DNA from: Candidatus Omnitrophota bacterium
Lineage (GTDB): Bacteria > Omnitrophota > Gorgyraeia > Gygaellales > Profunditerraquicolaceae
Assembly: GCA_030693145.1 (NCBI GenBank)
Contig: JAUYBI010000041.1
Span: 10,228 to 74,227 of the forward strand
Direction of reading: 5' to 3'
Length of the DNA stretch: 64,000 nt
In this document: piece after piece, positions 3-9,000 of the stretch
How the letters are laid out: every line of letters starts with the position of its first letter
How positions within the stretch are numbered: the first letter of the stretch is position 1
The notes under the pieces: generated by a model
The model's input: only the letters and a program-made list of their open reading frames with translations
Databases searched by the model: none
What the model was told of the DNA's origin: nothing
Translations under genes and position numbers: made by a program

Positions 3-3000
3 AAAAAGCCGCAATGGGCAGAACAAAAGGGAGTAAAAGAAACTTTGACGCAGTATGTGATCCGACAGGCAATAGAGGAGGCAACCGGTAAAAAGTTAGA
101 AGATGCGGTAATCGAACTAAACAAGCCGATTATCATAGATGAAGAAAAAGGAATCAGCCTTAAGATTTTATCTGTGGCAATGACATATAAGGAGTTTGCA
201 GGCAAAGATGGCGTGATAAAAGAAAAAGCGCATCGTTTAGGCATTATTAAAGAAGATGACGCAAATATAGTTATATCATTACCAAATGAAATCCTGGAGG
301 TTGGTTTTAGCGTGCAGGAAAAGATAGAGGCATTGAAAGCAGTAATAAGCTTTCAAATAAGGAAAGCCAGGTATTTACAAAATACGGGCCTTAGCCTTGA
401 AGACGAAATAAACTACGAGAAGATATTCCTGTCTGAGAATATAGAGTTATTAGAAGGAGACAAATTTGTGCCAAGCAATATGTTAAAGTTGCTAGGACAA
501 GTATCTGCGGCGATATCGATTATCCGGTTTACTAAAAAAACTATCCAAGAAGGTAAGGTGCCGGTTATAGCCAAGGATATGGATGGGACATGGACAGCTG
601 CCGGAACAAAGATGACTCCGGAGATGGCATACTATGCCTGGATTTATTTGAGAAACCATAAAATTATAAAATCAGTGCTTACAGCCCAGATGTTTGAGGG
701 TCCGCTGAAACAGGTATTAGAAGAGGTAATCCAGATAAACAACCGGATCGAGCTTATGGAGACACAAACCGGCATAAAGCAGGGAAAGCACTCTTTAGAG
801 GACCTTTTTAAGACATTTATAATCGGAGCTTCTTCAGGGAACGCGATTTTTGTTTACGATTCAGCTAAACAAGGCCATAAAAAGGTGTTTCAGAATTCAA
901 TGGATATTTTAACCACTAAGATAATTGAATTAGCAGGCAGGTTAACCATGCCGGAAATTCCTTATTCTGCGGAAGGCCACACCATAGAAAAAAGAGAAGC
1001 GGAATTTAAAAAACTGGTTAATGCGCAAGATGATAAATATGAAGTGTTAGGGTATGCTGCGTTGGCAGTTTTAATCTCAGGCCGGCATGATAAGCGCAGG
1101 GATTGTGATTTACCTCCGAGAGCGGAAAAACGCAGGTTGCAGGGGTTATTAATATCTGAGTTGCTAAAAACTCCGGGAGATTTAGTCGGATTATTAGATA
1201 AAATAGCGAAAAAAGAACTAACTGAAAAATGGGAAATTTCGATTAATCTGGGAGAAAAACAGTACTTGCATAGGGTTCGGGAAGACCAGAAAGAGGCGAT
1301 TGTTAGGGGATACGATGAGTTGAGGGAATTATTGAAAAGAGAGGATAAGCAGCCGAGCCAATTAGCGCCCATATATTGCTCGACTCAGCCCGGCGGAGCA
1401 ACGACATTAGATATTTCGCCTACCGGTAAAGGGCAGGGTATCGAGAATACGATTAAGGTTATAAAAAAGGAAAACGGAATTGGCGCTGACCGCCTTAAGA
1501 TAGGATTTATAGGAGATGAGATTTTGGAAGTATTAGTTCCGGGGATAGACATTAAAGTACCGGGCAACGATTATGATGTGGCTGATAGAGCGCTTAAGAA
1601 AGAAGAATTCAACAGCTTAATGGGTTTGATAATGCATGTCGGCCCGCTGGGCAAAGAAATTACAGTATTACCTAACACCTCTACTGCATACAATCCATTA
1701 GGAGTGATGCCGCATGAAGTGAGCAAAATTCTAGCCTATGCTTCAGCGGCAGTCTATAAAGAAGAGGCTTATAAAGAACTTGAGGCCAACGCGGAATATG
1801 TTTTAGCGAAGTTAAAAAAGTTAAACATTTCTCTTTTATCGTTTGGCGTTGAAAAAATAGAAGAACTTAATGAAGGTTCAGCTAAAGAAATTTTACTGGT
1901 AATTTCAAATGATAGGCTAAATACAAAAGATAATGATGATAAATATGACGGGGGAGAAATAATAGAAAAGTCAGAGGTAAAAGTTCATCCTTGCCTGCCG
2001 GGCAAAGTAAAACATGTTATGTTAATTCAGCCGGGTTTTATTTGGCAGATAAATAAACCTACCCGTATGCCTCTGGGATTAATGTATTTGGCCAGCGCTT
2101 TACGAAAGGATTTTTCTAAAGTAGATGTTTCAATAGTTGATATGCCGGCCGAACAGATCGATGTAGATGGATTAATCAGAAAAATTGGCGAAGAAAAACC
2201 CGATGTAATAGGAGTTTCTTTGATTTCTGTCTTCTTTGGAATCGGTAAGGAAATAGCCAGCGCGATAAGAAATAATTATCCGGAAATTCTGCTTGTTACA
2301 GGAGGGCCACATTCTTCCGCATTGCCCGAATACACGTTGCGTAACTCTGATTTTGATGTTGTGGTTATCGGTGAAGGCGAGTTGACTTTTAGCAGGGTTG
2401 TAGAGGCATTTGGTTACGGGAAAAGCTTTAGAGGAATAGACGGGGTTTGTTTTAAAGAAAAAGGCCAAATTATCAGCGGAGGATTTGTTTCCGATAGGCA
2501 TGATATTGAGGAATTACCGATGGCTGCCGAAAGCTTAGATCTGTTACGGTTGGATCGTTATGACGATATATTAGAAGGAGAGTTGGTTTATCCGATTATG
2601 GCGGCCAGAGGGTGTTATCATAGATGCGCCTTTTGTGCGGGCCAAACAGTTTTCCCTCGAGTAAGGAAGCGCAATCCAGAATCGGTGGTTAATGAGATAG
2701 AATTTGTGTATCGTAATTATGGAATTGAAATGTTCCACTTTTTTGATGATACATTTACAGCGGATCAAGAATATGCCAGCAAGATATTTGAACTGATAAT
2801 TAAAAGGGCTTTACCGGTCAGATGGATGGCTATGACGCGCGCAGACGCGATTGTGCGCAAGGTAAAAGAAGACGGAGACTACGGTAAAGAACAGGAATTT
2901 TTGAGGCTTGCTAAAGATTCCGGGTGCACTGGTTTTGCTATTGGAGTGGAGAGCGGTGACGAAGCAATTCTAAAATTAATGAATAAGCACCTCAACCTCG

Positions 3001-6000: not shown

Positions 6001-9000
6001 GGCAGGAAGTTTTCGAACAATTTAGGCAAGAAGCAGCTAAAAATCCTGTTAATTATGAAACTATATCATTTACCTTTCAGGGAGCTGTTGATAAATCCGT
6101 AGATTTTTCTATAAGCGTGCCAAAGGATTTAAATGATGACTCTTGGGGAGTGGTTTTTAAATATATTTCCGCGGAGATTAATAACCGGATTATAACCCGA
6201 AGCGCTAGAAGCGTAGTGGTAAATTCTAGCATTGAGGGGATTATAGAAAGATTAAGTAAGTATTTTGATGAACATTATAATAGCGAGGAAGCAGTTACTA
6301 AGGTTAGCGAAATGGTCGGTAGTTATTTCGGCGTAGAAAGATTTATAATTACCGCAGAACAGGCGGAAGGATTCGAGCTTGAAGAAACCTTATTTAATGC
6401 TAACGGTGTAAAACTTATTCCGGAAGCCAAGGCTATTTCCACAAAAATAATCGGGATTAATTTTGGGAAGATGATGGTTAAAATAGGAATAATGGAGCTT
6501 AGCGCGGACGGAAGGTTAAAATATCTTTCTGAGCCGGTAAGCTTTAAGACTTGGCCTGATGGCGTGGATAGGTTTAATTCGAAATTACTCTTGCAAAGAG
6601 TTATTGATGCTGTACGCAAGAAAATGAGTGAAGCTAATTTAAAAACCGATGATATTGATAGCATAGGCCTTAGTGTGAGCGTTGTTGTCCGGAATAATAA
6701 CATTATAGGAGTCAAAACCGGCCTTTCCGCGGAGTTCACTTTTGAAGGCATAGAACATCTTAAAGATTTACCGCGTCTAATTGCCGGTGAATTCCCAGGG
6801 AAAGCCGTTTTTGTAGAGAATGATGGAAACCTGGAGGCATTGGGGATTGCCGAGAAATATGGTTATCATAATACCTTGGTGCTTAAATTCGGTAATACTT
6901 TATCATCCGGATATATTGATGAAAACGGACAGATTCCCGAAGGAATAAATGAATTTACCAAGGTAATCATTGATTTAGATGAAAATGCCATCCTTCACGG
7001 ACTTACAAAATCCCGTGGTTGGGCAGGGGCATATATATCCTGGTGGGGAATAGAGAATAGCGCTCGTAGATTAGGTTTGTATGAAAAATACGGCTTTGGC
7101 GCAAATGATGAAGTCCCGCGAATTTTACGTTCTTGGCTTACGCGCGGAAATAAAGAACAGAAAGCTGATGCCTTAAAAGCATTTACTAATGTCGGAGAAT
7201 GGGTTGCGGCGCTTGTTAAGGGGGTTGAAAAATATTATAAAATAGAGCATGTTATACTTTCAGGGGGCATCTTGCTTGGAGCATCAGGAAAGGCTGTTGC
7301 CGACGCCGCAAATAAGATTCTAAGAGATGAAAATAATAATGGTAATAAAGTGAAAATAGCCAGCTCTAACGAGACAGATCTTAAATATGGCTGTCTTATC
7401 GGCTTGACTTATCTTGCTCGGAAAATCAAAAGCAGAGAATATAGCCGTTCTGATCATAATGATGGCGGTATTGATCAATCAAACATAGGAAGATTGGATG
7501 ATGGAAAAATCATTTTACCTGTAAGCACGGAAAAAGAGGCTGTCCGTATAGCGCATAATATCTTAGATAAAGTTTACTCGGCAAATACAAGAGAACAATT
7601 GATTAAAATTATTGATATTGCAAAAGAAAATAAAGATTTTGAATTTGTAACATGGGATAAAGATACCCTGCTTTTTTATCATATAATTTGCAACGGCGAA
7701 ATCATTGGAAAATATATATTAAGAAACGAATTGGGAGAAGTGAATTTAATTAAATATAAAGATTTTCTATCAATAGAGGTCTTTTTGAATAAATTAGGCA
7801 ACTCAGAAAGGTACGTTTTAATTTTAGGGAGAGGTAGTAAAGCTAAGTTGGGGAATATTATGGATGAAATAATTTATAAAACTGCGGCAACTCAGAAAGG
7901 ATTAACATTGTGGTTAACAGGCCTTCCGTCTTCGGGTAAGACAACCTTAGCGGATAATATAGCAGGTAGATTGAAAAAATCCGGAATTACGTGTGAGCGC
8001 ATAGATGGAGATCTTATAAGAAAAACTTTAAATAGAGATTTAGGTTTCAGTAAAGATGACAGGGATCGTAATATAGAAAGAGTCACGCGTATTTCTAAGG
8101 TATTAACAGAGTCAGGAATTGTAGTAATTACTTCTTTTATTTCGCCTTTTAAACTTGCCCGAGAAAACGCTAGAAAGCAGATAGGCAGTAAGTTTATTGA
8201 AATATATATCAAATGCCCGCTAACAGTTTGTGAAGCTCGCGATGTAAAAGGGTTATACAAAAAGGCAAGAAAGGGGATTATACCGGAATTTACCGGCATA
8301 TCTTCACCTTATGAAGAACCTAATTCTCCCGAGATTACGGTTGAAACAGACAAATTAACCTTAGAAGAGTCAGCTGACTTTGTTATAGAAAAAATTGGGG
8401 TGTTGGTTAGTCCTACAAGCTCAGAGCCGATCAAATCAGGAACTTTAAAAGAAGATAATGAAGAAGAACCTTTAAATATTATAGACAAATTTTTGAAAGA
8501 AGGAGTTTTACCTTGCTGGAAGGAGCCGGAAAATGTCCATGTAAAATATAGGGATATCGAGGTGGAGATTATCAGAGCGCAAGGGCAGTTAGAGAAAAAG
8601 ATAAAGAAATTAGAAGAAGATTTACTAGGTGGCAATAATGGTGTGGTAGAAGATCTTTTAAAGCTTTGGGGAAAATTAAGCTTAGTTATTAAGGCCAGAG
8701 AAAAGTTTATCCGGTTAGGTGTTCCCGCGTATCATACGCATACCAATCTAGAGGATGACGGTAGGTTAAACCCACAAAAATTAGTATATCATGCAATTGA
8801 TAGCGGTATAACGGTTCTCTATGTCACCGGACATGATAGGATAACAGGTTCTCTTAAAGCAATGGAATATGCCAAGAAGGCTAATTGTATTTTAGAAATG
8901 CGCCTCGGGGTAGAAATAGATACCCCATTTGTAGGCGCAACCGCAATTACTCATATCGTTGTTATACTACCTCGAGATAAAAAAGTGATAAAAATGGTCG

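Follow-up and report, generated by a model that had tools for sequence, protein, structure and literature searches.

Giant proteins of the Omnitrophota that carry PGI, PGM and radical SAM domains have been described as Archaeovorins (West-Roberts et al. 2023, bioRxiv 10.1101/2023.11.21.568195), and 'multi-enzyme metabolic clusters' with radical SAM, ROK, PGM and hexokinase Pfam families have also been reported (Nielsen & Lui 2026, bioRxiv 10.64898/2026.06.07.730766). Multi-enzyme giant proteins of the Omnitrophota are therefore already known from these two preprints, and the ORF that fills the window (the whole 64-kb stretch of DNA analysed here) is of the same kind. Like them, it runs to tens of thousands of codons, has sparse transmembrane helices, and contains many enzyme Pfam families of which none dominates (radical SAM, ROK-type kinase, PGM, PGI, hexokinase, methyltransferases, HEAT). 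It also has an rSAM-DegT-GHMP-ROK-like cassette and is punctuated by the tripeptide DGG; text searches turned up no mention of these features in either preprint, nor of an aminotransferase in the 2023 preprint. The DGG punctuation and the conserved cassette are what is new here. We read the window, with a probability of about 0.62, as part of a giant 'multi-enzyme' gene of the Omnitrophota type that is built of cassettes and has DGG at many of their boundaries.

Parts of the region also resemble other known systems. NDP-sugar and aminoglycoside tailoring clusters (Per, PseC, DesI; GenK/TokK/AprD4) use the same DegT and B12-type rSAM families, but there the enzymes come from separate operon genes and work alongside a nucleotidyltransferase and a 4,6-dehydratase, whereas here they are fused. 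Pfam reported no nucleotidyltransferase, 4,6-dehydratase or sulfotransferase family in the window (whole-chunk E <= 0.01), and thus a complete tailoring pathway is not encoded within it. FKP (L-fucokinase/GDP-fucose pyrophosphorylase; 5yys, 9iip) aligns with the GHMP kinase over ~350 residues, including the GGWQD loop and the GGGG motif, and its kinase, too, is joined to the enzyme that catalyses the following step of sugar activation. Unlike FKP, the GHMP kinase of the window has no pyrophosphorylase domain, its partners being an aminotransferase and a ROK-like domain, and it scored 128 bits against a cutoff of 721 for the NCBIfam FKP model, with an identity of ~25-30%. Fused APS kinases (CysNC, Sat/CysC, PAPS synthase) also place a canonical APS kinase in a larger polypeptide, but the one found here has no adjacent ATP sulfurylase; its neighbours are a 140-aa domain and a PHP phosphoesterase. 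The eukaryotic pentafunctional AROM protein resembles the window product in carrying consecutive metabolic enzymes in one chain whose fusion is conserved. AROM, however, is a complete contiguous pathway segment, whereas the steps in the window form no recognisable pathway and the chain is >10x longer.

One reading frame across the window

Frame 3 of the plus strand contained no stops over nt 3-63998, compared with 1,838 and 2,294 stops in the remaining two plus-strand frames. The earlier note had claimed a single stop-free reading frame at nt 1980-8400, and this is correct, the absence of stops there being far beyond chance. The frame is not confined to that region, however, but exceeds the window at both ends, which is why an ORF listing showed no plus-strand entry. 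The coordinates of the features are collected in Table 1, in which amino acid i corresponds to nt 3i..3i+2.

Table 1. Features of the giant ORF, in order of position
Feature	Amino acids	Nucleotides	Strand	Basis or remark
Single ORF (giant gene)		3..63998	+	21,332 codons, open at both window ends
DGG linker	649-651	1947..1955	+	Upstream edge of cassette A
Conserved four-enzyme cassette (cassette A)	652-2486	1956..7460	+	DGG-bounded, 52-57% identity to relatives
Cobalamin (B12)-binding domain	690-799	2070..2399	+	Pfam PF02310, E 9e-19
Radical SAM core	868-1037	2604..3113	+	Pfam PF04055, E 3e-19
DegT/DnrJ/EryC1-type PLP aminotransferase	1183-1545	3549..4637	+	Pfam, E 4e-76
Fucokinase-like GHMP kinase	1633-1988	4899..5966	+	NCBIfam PRK13412, PDB fucokinases
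'Bridge' domain	1989-2146	5967..6440	+	Precedes ROK-like domain in relatives examined
ROK-like ASKHA-fold domain	2147-2482	6441..7448	+	AlphaFold model and Foldseek; non-canonical motifs
DGG linker	2487-2489	7461..7469	+	Separates cassette A from APS-kinase cassette
~140-aa domain	2490-2631	7470..7895	+	No significant Pfam/NCBIfam match
Adenylyl-sulfate (APS) kinase	2632-2780	7896..8342	+	Pfam, E 1e-57
PHP-family phosphoesterase module	2824-3339	8472..10019	+	Pfam PHP, E 1e-6; outside 1980-8400

The five-enzyme region accounts for ~10% of the ORF, which spans at least 21,332 aa and in which Pfam recognised about 35 enzyme families. Those elsewhere in the ORF include PGM, two PGI, 6PGD, 6PGL, hexokinase, PRK and ARMT1, as well as methyltransferases, His_Phos_1, amidohydrolase, HUMPS/OMPdecase, SIS and CofD, and certain of these matches are partial (e.g., OMPdecase, positions 3-104 of 221). 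The polypeptide would appear tiled with sugar- and sugar-phosphate-metabolising enzymes. A hydropathy scan detected no transmembrane segment before aa 15,582 except for one marginal peak inside the amidohydrolase domain, which we treated as a false positive; from aa 15,582 on, hairpin-like pairs of transmembrane segments were observed. There was no signal sequence in the first ~15,580 aa, and the window showed neither a glycosyltransferase nor a dockerin, SecA or C39 domain.

A four-enzyme cassette and a separate APS kinase

Five enzyme types (B12-radical SAM, DegT aminotransferase, GHMP kinase, ASKHA kinase and APS kinase) had been proposed to follow one another in this frame, and they do, with four supported by Pfam, NCBIfam or PDB matches and the ASKHA domain by its fold only. 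Searches of Pfam and NCBIfam recovered B12-binding, Radical_SAM, DegT and APS_kinase domains; the GHMP kinase gave a weak GHMP_C match alone in Pfam (E 0.0017) and a clear one in NCBIfam, and the ASKHA domain had no sequence-level match in Pfam, NCBIfam or PDB. Catalytic motifs were intact in four of the five, the ROK-like ASKHA domain lacking the canonical ones.

The largest DGG-free interval in the window, with 1,838 aa between DGG sites, holds what we call cassette A. It is made up of a B12-dependent radical SAM enzyme, an aminotransferase resembling perosamine synthase, an anomeric sugar kinase resembling fucokinase, the bridge and a divergent ROK-like domain. The radical SAM domain retains its cysteine triad (CxxxCxxC at aa 871-878, CYHRCAFC). 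It matched NCBIfam B12-rSAM models of the BchE/HpnJ/BzaD type (E 5e-46 to 4e-36) and, in the PDB, 9ccb, AprD4 (E 6e-14) and TokK (E 7e-9), while the DegT domain matched PseC/LegC/DesI models; for both domains all NCBIfam equivalog matches fell far under the cutoffs, which sets them apart from the tailoring-cluster enzymes. With perosamine synthetase 3bn1 (E 8e-39), the DegT Schiff-base Lys (FSLYATK) and the Asp of EDA align. PRK13412, a bifunctional fucokinase/fucose-1-P guanylyltransferase, matches the GHMP kinase through its kinase end (positions 590-971 of 974, E 2e-37), and fucokinase chains 9iip/5yys (E 1e-19) align at the GAGSS, GGWQDH and GTGGGGY motifs, so that GHMP motifs II and III are intact together with the WQD Asp.

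The bridge had no Pfam match. For the domain that follows it, an AlphaFold model of aa 2101-2487 (pLDDT 63.5, pTM 0.62) matched the ROK glucokinases 2qm1 and 3vov in Foldseek (E 1e-15 to 1e-13, probability 1.0), and there is a weak sequence link to a stand-alone ASKHA-like protein, P0042 (E 1e-6). GINFGKM stands where the DxGxT ATP motif is expected, with the Asp of the motif lost; the His of ExGH is missing too, as is the zinc Cys motif, and one 10-residue motif is retained. Because of these losses the kinase label given to the ASKHA domain is unproven, although a ROK-like fold is supported.

The best homologues are P0001 (JGI, 56% identity) and P0002 (52%), the latter being the nearest named relative ('MAG: Candidatus Omnitrophota bacterium'). 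Identity of cassette A to P0001, P0002 and P0041 is 52-57%, with unrelated flanks, and it is on relatives at this level of identity that the Omnitrophota assignment is based. The domains of the block show no indels, which at this identity indicates purifying selection. Cassette A is colinear with P0001 aa 599-2410 (56% over a 1,824-aa alignment); segment by segment, identity ranges over 33-69% within the block and falls to 5-16% beyond its DGG sites: 16% before and 45-69% after the upstream site, and 5% after the downstream one. The B12-binding domain accounts for the 69%. The ROK-like domain is followed by a HAD-containing region in P0001, by phosphoglucomutase in P0041, and by an APS kinase in neither. 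P0043 and P0044 likewise join a GHMP to a ROK-like domain, as does P0045 in reversed order, while the bridge and the ROK-like domain were matched together in P0045, P0046, P0048, P0049, P0050 and P0052. Another relative, P0056, combines B12-rSAM, UDPGP and GHMP. The remote rSAM homologues P0003 and P0004 belong to glycan clusters that also contain glycosyltransferases and Wzm/Wzt.

Beyond the downstream DGG, from aa 2490, a cassette B would comprise the small domain, an intact APS kinase and the PHP phosphoesterase. Judged by its sequence, the kinase is a bona fide APS kinase: it scored 230 bits against TIGR00455, over the curated equivalog cutoff of 138.7, and the 12-residue P-loop, DGD and FISP are present. 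The PHP module is duplicated at aa 5676-6202. Only its N-terminal part matched 3',5'-nucleoside bisphosphate phosphatase (E 8e-9) and RNase RNM (E 2e-10), both weakly, and the module also matched PDB PHP phosphoesterase 9etk (E 1e-3). PAPS formation by cassette B would appear to be an independent activity.

The interval nt 1980-8400 therefore covers one and a half cassettes. The idea of an operon collapsed into one polypeptide holds insofar as all five enzymes share a frame, but they are a fraction of a larger ORF and are not self-contained; likewise, relatives preserve the first four as a block, whereas the APS kinase is not conserved next to them. Because DGG splits off the APS kinase and only the first four are conserved together, the arrangement is '4+1' and not a five-step collapsed operon.

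DGG at cassette boundaries

DGG was found at 53 sites, where 5.8 would be expected (Poisson P 2e-32) or 10.4 under a first-order Markov expectation (P 8e-21), making it the most enriched tripeptide in the product (9.2x, the runner-up 3.5x). None of the 53 falls inside identified domains (29% of residues, P 1.5e-8), a test that counts solely the domains in our own list; the DGG at aa 3463 is an intradomain CofD/YvcK-type motif. Many sites lie 5-90 aa from a domain edge, their flanks are barely conserved, and only Asp is enriched ahead of GG. Not every module boundary has a DGG; the one at which the PHP module gives way to the CofD-like block (~aa 3340-3350) lacks it. Just upstream of the block corresponding to cassette A, P0001 has LGG and P0002 has DNGG, and P0046 carries a DGG in the equivalent position behind its ROK-like domain. 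Many cassette boundaries of the giant polypeptide are marked by a short DGG linker motif.

Processing, folding and location of the product

One possible, if doubtful, explanation of these sites is that the product is a polyprotein, cut at or beside DGG by a protease that recognises DGG or double glycine, or by Asp/Asn-Gly self-cleavage. Cassette A would then be released as a ~200-kDa four-enzyme protein and the APS kinase-PHP cassette separately, and the gene would work as an operon does, but in a single reading frame. A short recognition site would account for strong enrichment with poorly conserved flanks, for the Asp, and for the position of DGG near many domain edges but never inside listed domains. 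Consistent with cleavage, the model has low confidence in its tail (residues 381-387), where the DGG after the ROK-like domain lies; homology blocks, like internal duplications, often stop near DGG; and S[LS]DNGG occurs at matching boundaries of relatives, once in P0002 and three times in P0051 (0.03 expected), where the copies flank a Peptidase_M54 module. Three paralogous HExGH modules in the window each occupy their own DGG-bounded unit, but they have no family match, their AlphaFold model was unusable (pLDDT 46.5), and in Pfam no peptidase family reached E <= 0.01 anywhere in the window. The 2023 preprint (10.1101/2023.11.21.568195) suggests C39 or S8 domains as the cleaving agents and describes the cleavage points as unknown. 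Gly-Gly-cut precursors (C39 double-glycine peptidases; ubiquitin-like, viral LxGG) likewise have a short GG motif at unit boundaries, but here Asp is invariant before GG, the C39 leader consensus (hydrophobic at -4, -7, -12) is absent from the flanks, and a protease of this kind was not found in the window. Also against cleavage, DGG was not enriched over 190 related proteins (38 observed, 77 expected). It is unlikely that DGG instead acts as a translation or folding signal (slowly decoded and pausing the ribosome, or a flexible hinge) in a protein that stays intact, allowing each cassette to fold before the next emerges from a >21,000-aa chain. The location of DGG between domains fits such a role, as do a preference for GACGGC (30 sites, 13.7 expected, P 2e-6), which goes beyond the local context effect, and the octamer GACGGCGG, present in 30 copies against 0.34 expected, all in frame and none on the other strand. 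However, codon context in general explains much of this bias (Asp before Gly is GAC in 48%, the first Gly of xGG is GGC in 54%), and a hinge does not need an invariant Asp.

Because they need ATP, SAM, PLP, cobalamin and Fe-S, and because the first ~15,580 aa have no transmembrane helix, we infer that the enzymes lie on the cytoplasmic side. Against this, relatives of cassette A (P0001 and others) have signal-peptide-like N-termini, which would put enzymes that depend on ATP and SAM outside the cytoplasm; the 2023 preprint (10.1101/2023.11.21.568195) points to this contradiction as well. An exported effector array acting on the prey surface or in the prey cytoplasm, as proposed for Archaeovorins, would obtain ATP, SAM and cofactors from the host and divert the prey sugar-phosphate pool. 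Relatives of 2.6-6.6 kAA with the same enzyme modules start signal-peptide-like and have a conserved N-terminal domain and a conserved C-terminal tail in common, as in delivery systems with variable cargo, and giant ORFs are tied to predation and secretion loci in the literature. We nevertheless consider export improbable, given ~15,580 aa without a transmembrane segment or signal sequence and radical SAM, cobalamin and Fe-S chemistry that is hard to square with an extracellular site; the N-terminus of the ORF lies outside the window. Least credible is that the domains are decayed and serve as catalytically dead filler of a surface coat. The ROK-like domain without its phosphate-1 Asp, ExGH His and zinc site would suit this, as would partial Pfam matches such as that of OMPdecase, but the rSAM, DegT, GHMP and APS kinase motifs are all intact, the APS kinase exceeds its curated cutoff, and cassette A is well conserved in relatives.

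On the preferred reading, that of a giant multi-enzyme gene built of cassettes, cassette A would be inherited as a unit that moves between different large proteins. The enzymes would be tethered catalysts for the activation and tailoring of a sugar or sugar phosphate, through phosphorylation, transamination, and radical methylation or rearrangement.

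One stop-free frame and its enzyme content

Frame 3 of the forward strand contains no stop codon from nt 3 to nt 63998, a total of 21,332 codons, and is open at both ends, whereas in a six-frame stop count of the window the remaining two forward frames hold 1,838 and 2,294 stops (~9-11%). The stop-free frame is real and lies far beyond chance; because all three stop codons are missing in it and make up ~9-11% of the other forward frames, stop-codon reassignment or a spurious ORF is ruled out. No long forward-strand ORF appears in the ORF listing because frame 3 runs off both ends of the window. 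The earlier note had described five enzyme types in a single stop-free frame at nt 1980-8400. This was confirmed, the frame being free of stops over all 64 kb; the fusion stands and its limits do not, since the frame is ten times larger than reported. Hidden RNA genes or introns were dropped as candidates, as both Rfam at gathering thresholds and an ARAGORN tRNA scan were empty for the window.

With at least 21,332 codons, the ORF is well within the size of the giant multi-enzyme class (10,000 aa or more), and its composition is that of the class, with about 35 Pfam families along the chain, none dominant, and no more than two copies each of phosphoglucose isomerase and PHP phosphoesterase at the top. 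Sugar-phosphate families detected by Pfam in the frame are phosphoglucomutase, two phosphoglucose isomerases, 6-phosphogluconate dehydrogenase, 6-phosphogluconolactonase, and hexokinase. They are accompanied by a shikimate-dehydrogenase-like domain, a PRK-type kinase, an ARMT1-like phosphatase, and several methyltransferases, as well as histidine phosphatase, amidohydrolase, HUMPS/OMPdecase, SIS, PEMT, HEAT repeats, CofD, and the two PHP modules. The Pfam-poor C-terminal part, aa 14,701-19,699, had no homologues at E <= 1e-10.

Up to aa 15,580, a hydropathy scan gave no believable membrane-spanning segment; its one marginal peak there, within the amidohydrolase domain, was treated as a false positive. 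The only convincing hydrophobic helices in the part of the ORF within the window are three late pairs (see table), which supply the transmembrane element of the giant multi-enzyme class; the N-terminus of the ORF lies beyond the window. The coding strand also shows a strong purine skew (GC skew ~+0.23), which falls to ~0-0.09 in a few 2-kb bins that may represent modules of different origin.

Genes of this kind have been described before. West-Roberts et al. 2023 (10.1101/2023.11.21.568195) reported Omnitrophota Archaeovorins that carry domains of the PGI, PGM, radical SAM, and HEAT types, and Nielsen & Lui 2026 (10.64898/2026.06.07.730766) reported 'multi-enzyme metabolic clusters', which reach 147,155 aa and in which radical SAM, ROK, PGM, and hexokinase Pfams occur. 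Since both preprints describe such Omnitrophota genes, the phenomenon as such is known, and our ORF probably belongs to these already known multi-enzyme giant proteins.

The five enzyme domains

Profile searches bore out most of the proposed domains: B12-binding/radical SAM, DegT, and APS kinase were found with Pfam and the GHMP kinase with NCBIfam and PDB profiles, whereas the ASKHA kinase was recovered by fold and not by sequence. The first enzyme has the class B radical SAM layout, an N-terminal B12-binding domain followed by a SAM core with CxxxCxxC. No functional subfamily (BchE, HpnJ, BzaD, PhpK) was reached with NCBIfam, as all equivalog models scored under their cutoffs; the best match was BchE, with 158 bits versus a cutoff of 481. 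The DegT domain scored 257 bits against a Pfam gathering score of 19.8. Its Schiff-base Lys (FSLYATK) and pyridine-N Asp (LEDAS) both align with perosamine synthetase 3bn1, and NtdA-type sugar-phosphate transaminases are also among its PDB matches. The APS kinase exceeds the curated equivalog cutoff (TIGR00455, 230.2 bits versus 138.7), and its P-loop, DGD, and FISP (SFISPF) motifs are all intact.

From DegT to the APS kinase, a distance of 1,087 aa, Pfam gave only a weak GHMP_C match and did not detect GHMP_N. Residues 1605-1982 match the kinase end of the NCBIfam model for bifunctional fucokinase/fucose-1-P guanylyltransferase (E 2e-37, under the equivalog cutoff), and PDB fucokinase chains match the GHMP domain with E 1e-19. 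Motif II GAGSS (GxGSS), motif III GTGGGGY (GGGG), and the catalytic loop GGWQDH (WQD) align with the FKP kinase domain.

Because nothing in Pfam, NCBIfam, or PDB matched the putative ASKHA domain by sequence, a fold prediction was needed. The AlphaFold model of aa 2101-2487 is of moderate confidence (pLDDT 63.5, pTM 0.62), and Foldseek matches it best to sugar kinases and repressors of the ROK family, among them ROK glucokinase 2qm1 (E 1.8e-15, probability 1.0). As modelled, the domain has the ASKHA two-lobe fold. The catalytic Asp of ND(G/A) is retained; the phosphate-1 motif reads GINFGKM and not DxGxT (the related database proteins P0041 and P0002 have S or N for the Asp), NEFTK stands in place of ExGH, and the CxCGxxGCxE zinc site is absent, with no Cys cluster. 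Since the canonical ROK motifs are missing, we did not file the domain as a ROK kinase and call it ROK-like; whether it is active as a kinase is uncertain. The expectation of intact catalytic residues thus holds for the radical SAM triad, DegT, GHMP, and APS kinase and fails for the ROK-like domain, in which the phosphate-1 Asp, ExGH, and the zinc Cys are gone.

The DGG motif and the cassettes it delimits

The tripeptide Asp-Gly-Gly (DGG) first drew attention at two places, immediately ahead of the B12 domain (aa 649-651) and directly behind the ROK-like domain (aa 2487-2489). It occurs 53 times in the ORF versus 5.8 expected from composition (Poisson P 2e-32) or 10.4 under a first-order Markov model (P 8e-21), making it the most enriched tripeptide (9.2-fold; the runner-up reaches 3.5-fold). 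Before GG only Asp is favoured, with EGG found once (8.7 expected) and KGG three times (9.1 expected). The flanking residues are almost uninformative and not enriched in D or G, which excludes linker composition as the source of the excess. None of the 53 sites falls inside the listed identified domains, which cover 29% of residues with the GHMP and ROK-like spans included (P 1.5e-8). Many sites lie 5-90 aa off a domain edge, and two sites bracket each of phosphoglucomutase, both phosphoglucose isomerases, hexokinase, histidine phosphatase, and amidohydrolase. One DGG is not in a linker and belongs to a conserved motif of the CofD/YvcK-like block, which spans ~820 aa (aa 3350-4169) and is only partially detected by Pfam, and at least one module boundary, PHP to CofD-like at ~aa 3340-3350, has no DGG.

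At the nucleotide level, the octamer GACGGCGG, which coincides with DGG codons, is the most over-represented 8-mer in the window: 30 copies lie on the forward strand, all in the DGG frame, versus 0.34 expected, and none on the other strand. We do not accept a purely DNA-level element, be it a polar octamer of the Chi/KOPS type or an internal Shine-Dalgarno, as the only cause, because every copy is in the DGG frame while 23 more DGG sites use other codons, because GGAGG is present at only 8 of the 53 sites, because downstream Met is not enriched (24 versus 28 expected), and because a general context effect at Asp-Gly and Gly-Gly makes up roughly half of the codon bias (GAC is used for 48% of Asp before Gly, GGC for 54% of the first Gly of xGG). 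A residual bias is left, with GACGGC found 30 times versus 13.7 expected (P 2e-6).

In the split relatives described below DGG is rare, and across 190 relatives it is not enriched (38 versus 77 expected). Module boundaries elsewhere do show a variant, S[LS]DNGG, which occurs three times in the related protein P0051 (0.03 expected), where a Peptidase_M54 (archaemetzincin-like) module at aa 328-562 lies between two SxDNGG copies and the third is near the C-terminus. The variant is found once in P0002, just upstream of the radical SAM block, and in P0046 a DGG stands directly behind the ROK-like domain, as in the window.

The longest DGG-free interval of the window, 1,838 aa (aa 649-2487), holds exactly the radical SAM, DegT, and GHMP enzymes, a bridge segment, and the ROK-like domain. 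The APS kinase is in the next DGG interval, after a 140-aa unknown domain and before a PHP phosphoesterase. The best relative of nt 1980-8400, the JGI metagenome protein P0001 (56% identity over 85% of the query), runs colinear with aa 664-2483 (56% identity there); among named relatives P0002, NCBI 'MAG: Candidatus Omnitrophota bacterium', comes nearest, with 52% identity to nt 1980-8400. Per-segment identity with P0001 is 33-69% within the block, inter-domain segments included, and drops to 16% and 5% directly beyond the two flanking DGG sites. Downstream of the ROK-like domain, P0001 has a HAD-containing region and P0041 a phosphoglucomutase, and the CofD-like block is upstream of the radical SAM block in P0002 and downstream of it in the window. 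Given these unrelated flanks, the four-enzyme cassette has been shuffled as a unit and the APS kinase adjacency is not conserved, for which reason we reject a five-enzyme pathway with sulfation. Neither a sulfotransferase nor an ATP sulfurylase family was reported by Pfam in the window. The earlier picture of an operon collapsed into one polypeptide therefore survives as to fusion, but inside a giant gene and as four plus one enzymes, not one five-step unit.

An HMMER search of the full library with aa 1560-2640 as query returned fusions of the GHMP, bridge, and ROK-like domains in P0043 and P0044 and the reversed order in P0045. The bridge and ROK-like domains also occur as stand-alone proteins of ~490-550 aa (P0046, P0048) and within proteins of 2.7-5.4 kAA (P0049, P0050, P0052). 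This two-domain unit appears to be an undescribed family, and the presence of the fucokinase-like and ROK-like domains together, in whichever order, speaks for a link between their functions.

On the contig of P0001 (L001, JGI contig Ga0598270_0000168), the homologous stretches are split among consecutive genes of 2,618, 3,278, 2,793, and >404 aa. All of these begin signal-peptide-like, the three complete ones end in a conserved tail (...LPK..P.........AL..A), and P0001 and its downstream neighbour have a common N-terminal domain of ~500 aa. The same build, in which an anchor and an N-domain precede variable enzyme cargo and a C-terminal tail, is found again in P0044, P0047, P0056, P0057, P0059, P0064, P0065, and P0082. 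Together with L001 2138-29583, these eight proteins form a family of 1-6.6 kAA with the N-domain signature ..IINIQDAH..AQESI.. and the tail ..LP...P..Y......A[LI]..[AS]A; their cargo modules are the same as in the window, and the family gives the impression of a frame for delivery or anchoring whose cargo can be exchanged. More remote radical SAM homologues, P0004 (contig L006) and P0003 (contig L007), are multi-radical-SAM fusion proteins encoded in clusters for glycan biosynthesis that also hold GT1, GT2, and GT4 glycosyltransferases, PMT_2, a sulfatase, and Wzm/Wzt exporters. A glycan-tailoring role would fit these surroundings in general terms.

Several other modules of the ORF are repeated. 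The PHP phosphoesterase module after the APS kinase has a second copy 2,850 aa downstream (43-62% identity) with no adjoining APS kinase. The two phosphoglucose isomerase modules, each bracketed by DGG, have a mutual identity of 68-80% and look like an internal cassette duplication. Another DGG-free unit combines shikimate-dehydrogenase-like, 6-phosphogluconate dehydrogenase, and 6-phosphogluconolactonase domains and is another multi-enzyme cassette, for oxidative pentose-phosphate steps. A 28-aa stretch across a DGG occurs twice with 96% protein identity; the copies differ synonymously, and the 1,078-aa segment between them is absent from the colinear relative in L001. Finally, three small paralogous modules with the invariant pattern V.P..A..I......HE.GH each lie within their own DGG-bounded unit. 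To judge by this HExGH pattern, they may be zinc metallopeptidase-like; no family matched them, a PDB profile search hit only the TPR repeat of the module, and its AlphaFold model (pLDDT 46.5) was too poor for a fold search.

Coordinates of features in the window (amino acid i corresponds to nt 3i to 3i+2)
Feature	Nucleotides	Amino acids	Strand	Basis or remark
B12-binding, PF02310		690-799	+	Pfam
Radical_SAM, PF04055		868-1037	+	Pfam; CxxxCxxC is CYHRCAFC at aa 871-878
DegT_DnrJ_EryC1		1183-1545	+	Pfam
Bridge + ROK-like unit	5967-7448		+	no Pfam or NCBIfam model
APS_kinase		2632-2780	+	Pfam
PHP module, first copy	8472-10019
PHP module, second copy	17028-18608
Phosphoglucose isomerase modules	24114-25868, 29463-31307
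DGG-free pentose-phosphate unit	25926-29483	8642-9827
28-aa stretch, two copies	12519-12602, 15753-15836	4173-4200, 5251-5278
HExGH modules, three copies	12882-13208, 15315-15605, 38997-39302	4294-4402, 5105-5201, 12999-13100	+
DGG sites, examples	1947, 7461, 12525, 20163, 21807, 24108, 25908, 29484, 31308, 34449, 35802		+
DGG outside linkers	10389-10397	3463-3465	+	conserved DDGG(S/A)TFKM motif
GACGGCGG sites, examples	10389, 21807, 24108, 25908, 29484, 31308		+
Hydrophobic helix pair 1	46746-47015	15582-15671	+	hydropathy scan; within PEMT-like domain
Hydrophobic helix pair 2	51942-52073	17314-17357	+	hydropathy scan
Hydrophobic helix pair 3	63135-63269	21045-21089	+	hydropathy scan
Low-skew 2-kb bins	10001-12000, 22001-24000, 30001-32000, 50001-52000			some with raised G+C of 0.42-0.45

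Possible working and significance

We infer that the enzyme region most likely resides on the cytoplasmic side as a set of tethered catalysts acting on sugars or sugar phosphates, because these enzymes depend on ATP, SAM, PLP, cobalamin, and an Fe-S cluster, and because 15,580 aa pass without a membrane crossing. In the four-enzyme cassette, the fucokinase-like domain would carry out anomeric phosphorylation, the perosamine-synthase-like DegT a keto-sugar transamination, and the radical SAM enzyme a methylation or rearrangement, while the ROK-like domain would serve in sugar binding or phosphorylation. The cassette with the APS kinase would synthesize PAPS. Its PHP module resembles 3',5'-bisphosphate nucleotidases only weakly (E 8e-9 over 75 residues), which makes a PAPS/PAP cycle a lead and no more. 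Pfam reported no nucleotidyltransferase, dehydratase, or sulfotransferase families in the window, and a complete pathway therefore cannot be assembled.

The boldest reading of DGG, and of S-x-D-N-G-G in related lineages, is a tentative one, to which we give a probability of roughly 0.35: it would be a dedicated processing or pausing punctuation of some Omnitrophota giant genes, dividing more than 21,000 aa into duplicated and shuffled functional cassettes such as radical SAM-DegT-GHMP-ROK-like. The main rival to tethered catalysts, with which it is partly compatible, is a polyprotein that would be cleaved at the DGG sites. In favour of this are a motif that is short, invariant, free in its flanks, and placed between domains, its coincidence with evolutionary module edges, the DNGG counterpart beside a metallopeptidase module in relatives, and the three HExGH paralogues within DGG-bounded units; however, the window holds no recognisable peptidase family, and the model of the HExGH module is unusable. 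One known parallel is with double-glycine (C39-type) precursors, in which, as here, GG stands at a unit boundary (53 DGG, none inside listed domains). Unlike those precursors, the ORF has no leader pattern (hydrophobic residues at -4, -7, and -12), its flanks being almost information-free, which speaks against cutting of that type, and Pfam found no Peptidase_C39 match in the window, outside which the rest of the ORF lies.

A translational pause or hinge for co-translational folding comes next to cleavage as a rival, and the residual codon preference at DGG speaks for it. Export of the enzymes to prey, a more distant alternative, draws on the signal-like N-termini of the relatives, but is at odds with the cofactor chemistry. 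That the enzyme domains are a dead scaffold is unlikely in view of their intact catalytic motifs and 52-57% conservation.

As far as text searches of both Omnitrophota preprints show, neither DGG punctuation nor a sharply delimited, shuffled four-enzyme cassette has been described. For the giant multi-enzyme genes already documented in Omnitrophota, DGG and the cassette make it directly testable whether the product is one protein or is cut, and where; the 2023 preprint (10.1101/2023.11.21.568195) gives the cleavage map of giant proteins as unknown. The boundaries that DGG predicts are exact and can be looked for in metaproteomes already available and in the published giant-protein catalogue of 916 proteins (Nielsen & Lui, 10.64898/2026.06.07.730766), and the four-enzyme cassette, being clearly delimited and conserved across lineages, can be cloned and assayed alone. 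Were DGG functionless, the result would keep its use: the region would then be just one more part of a giant gene of a type already on record, and no single pathway should be read into the five enzymes. If DGG is a cleavage site, the giant gene would in effect be an operon expressed as one polyprotein, with the motif as its cleavage map. As a processing site, DGG would let annotation go cassette by cassette in place of arbitrary chunking, and metabolic enzymes of a bacterium would prove to be expressed in the manner of viral polyproteins.
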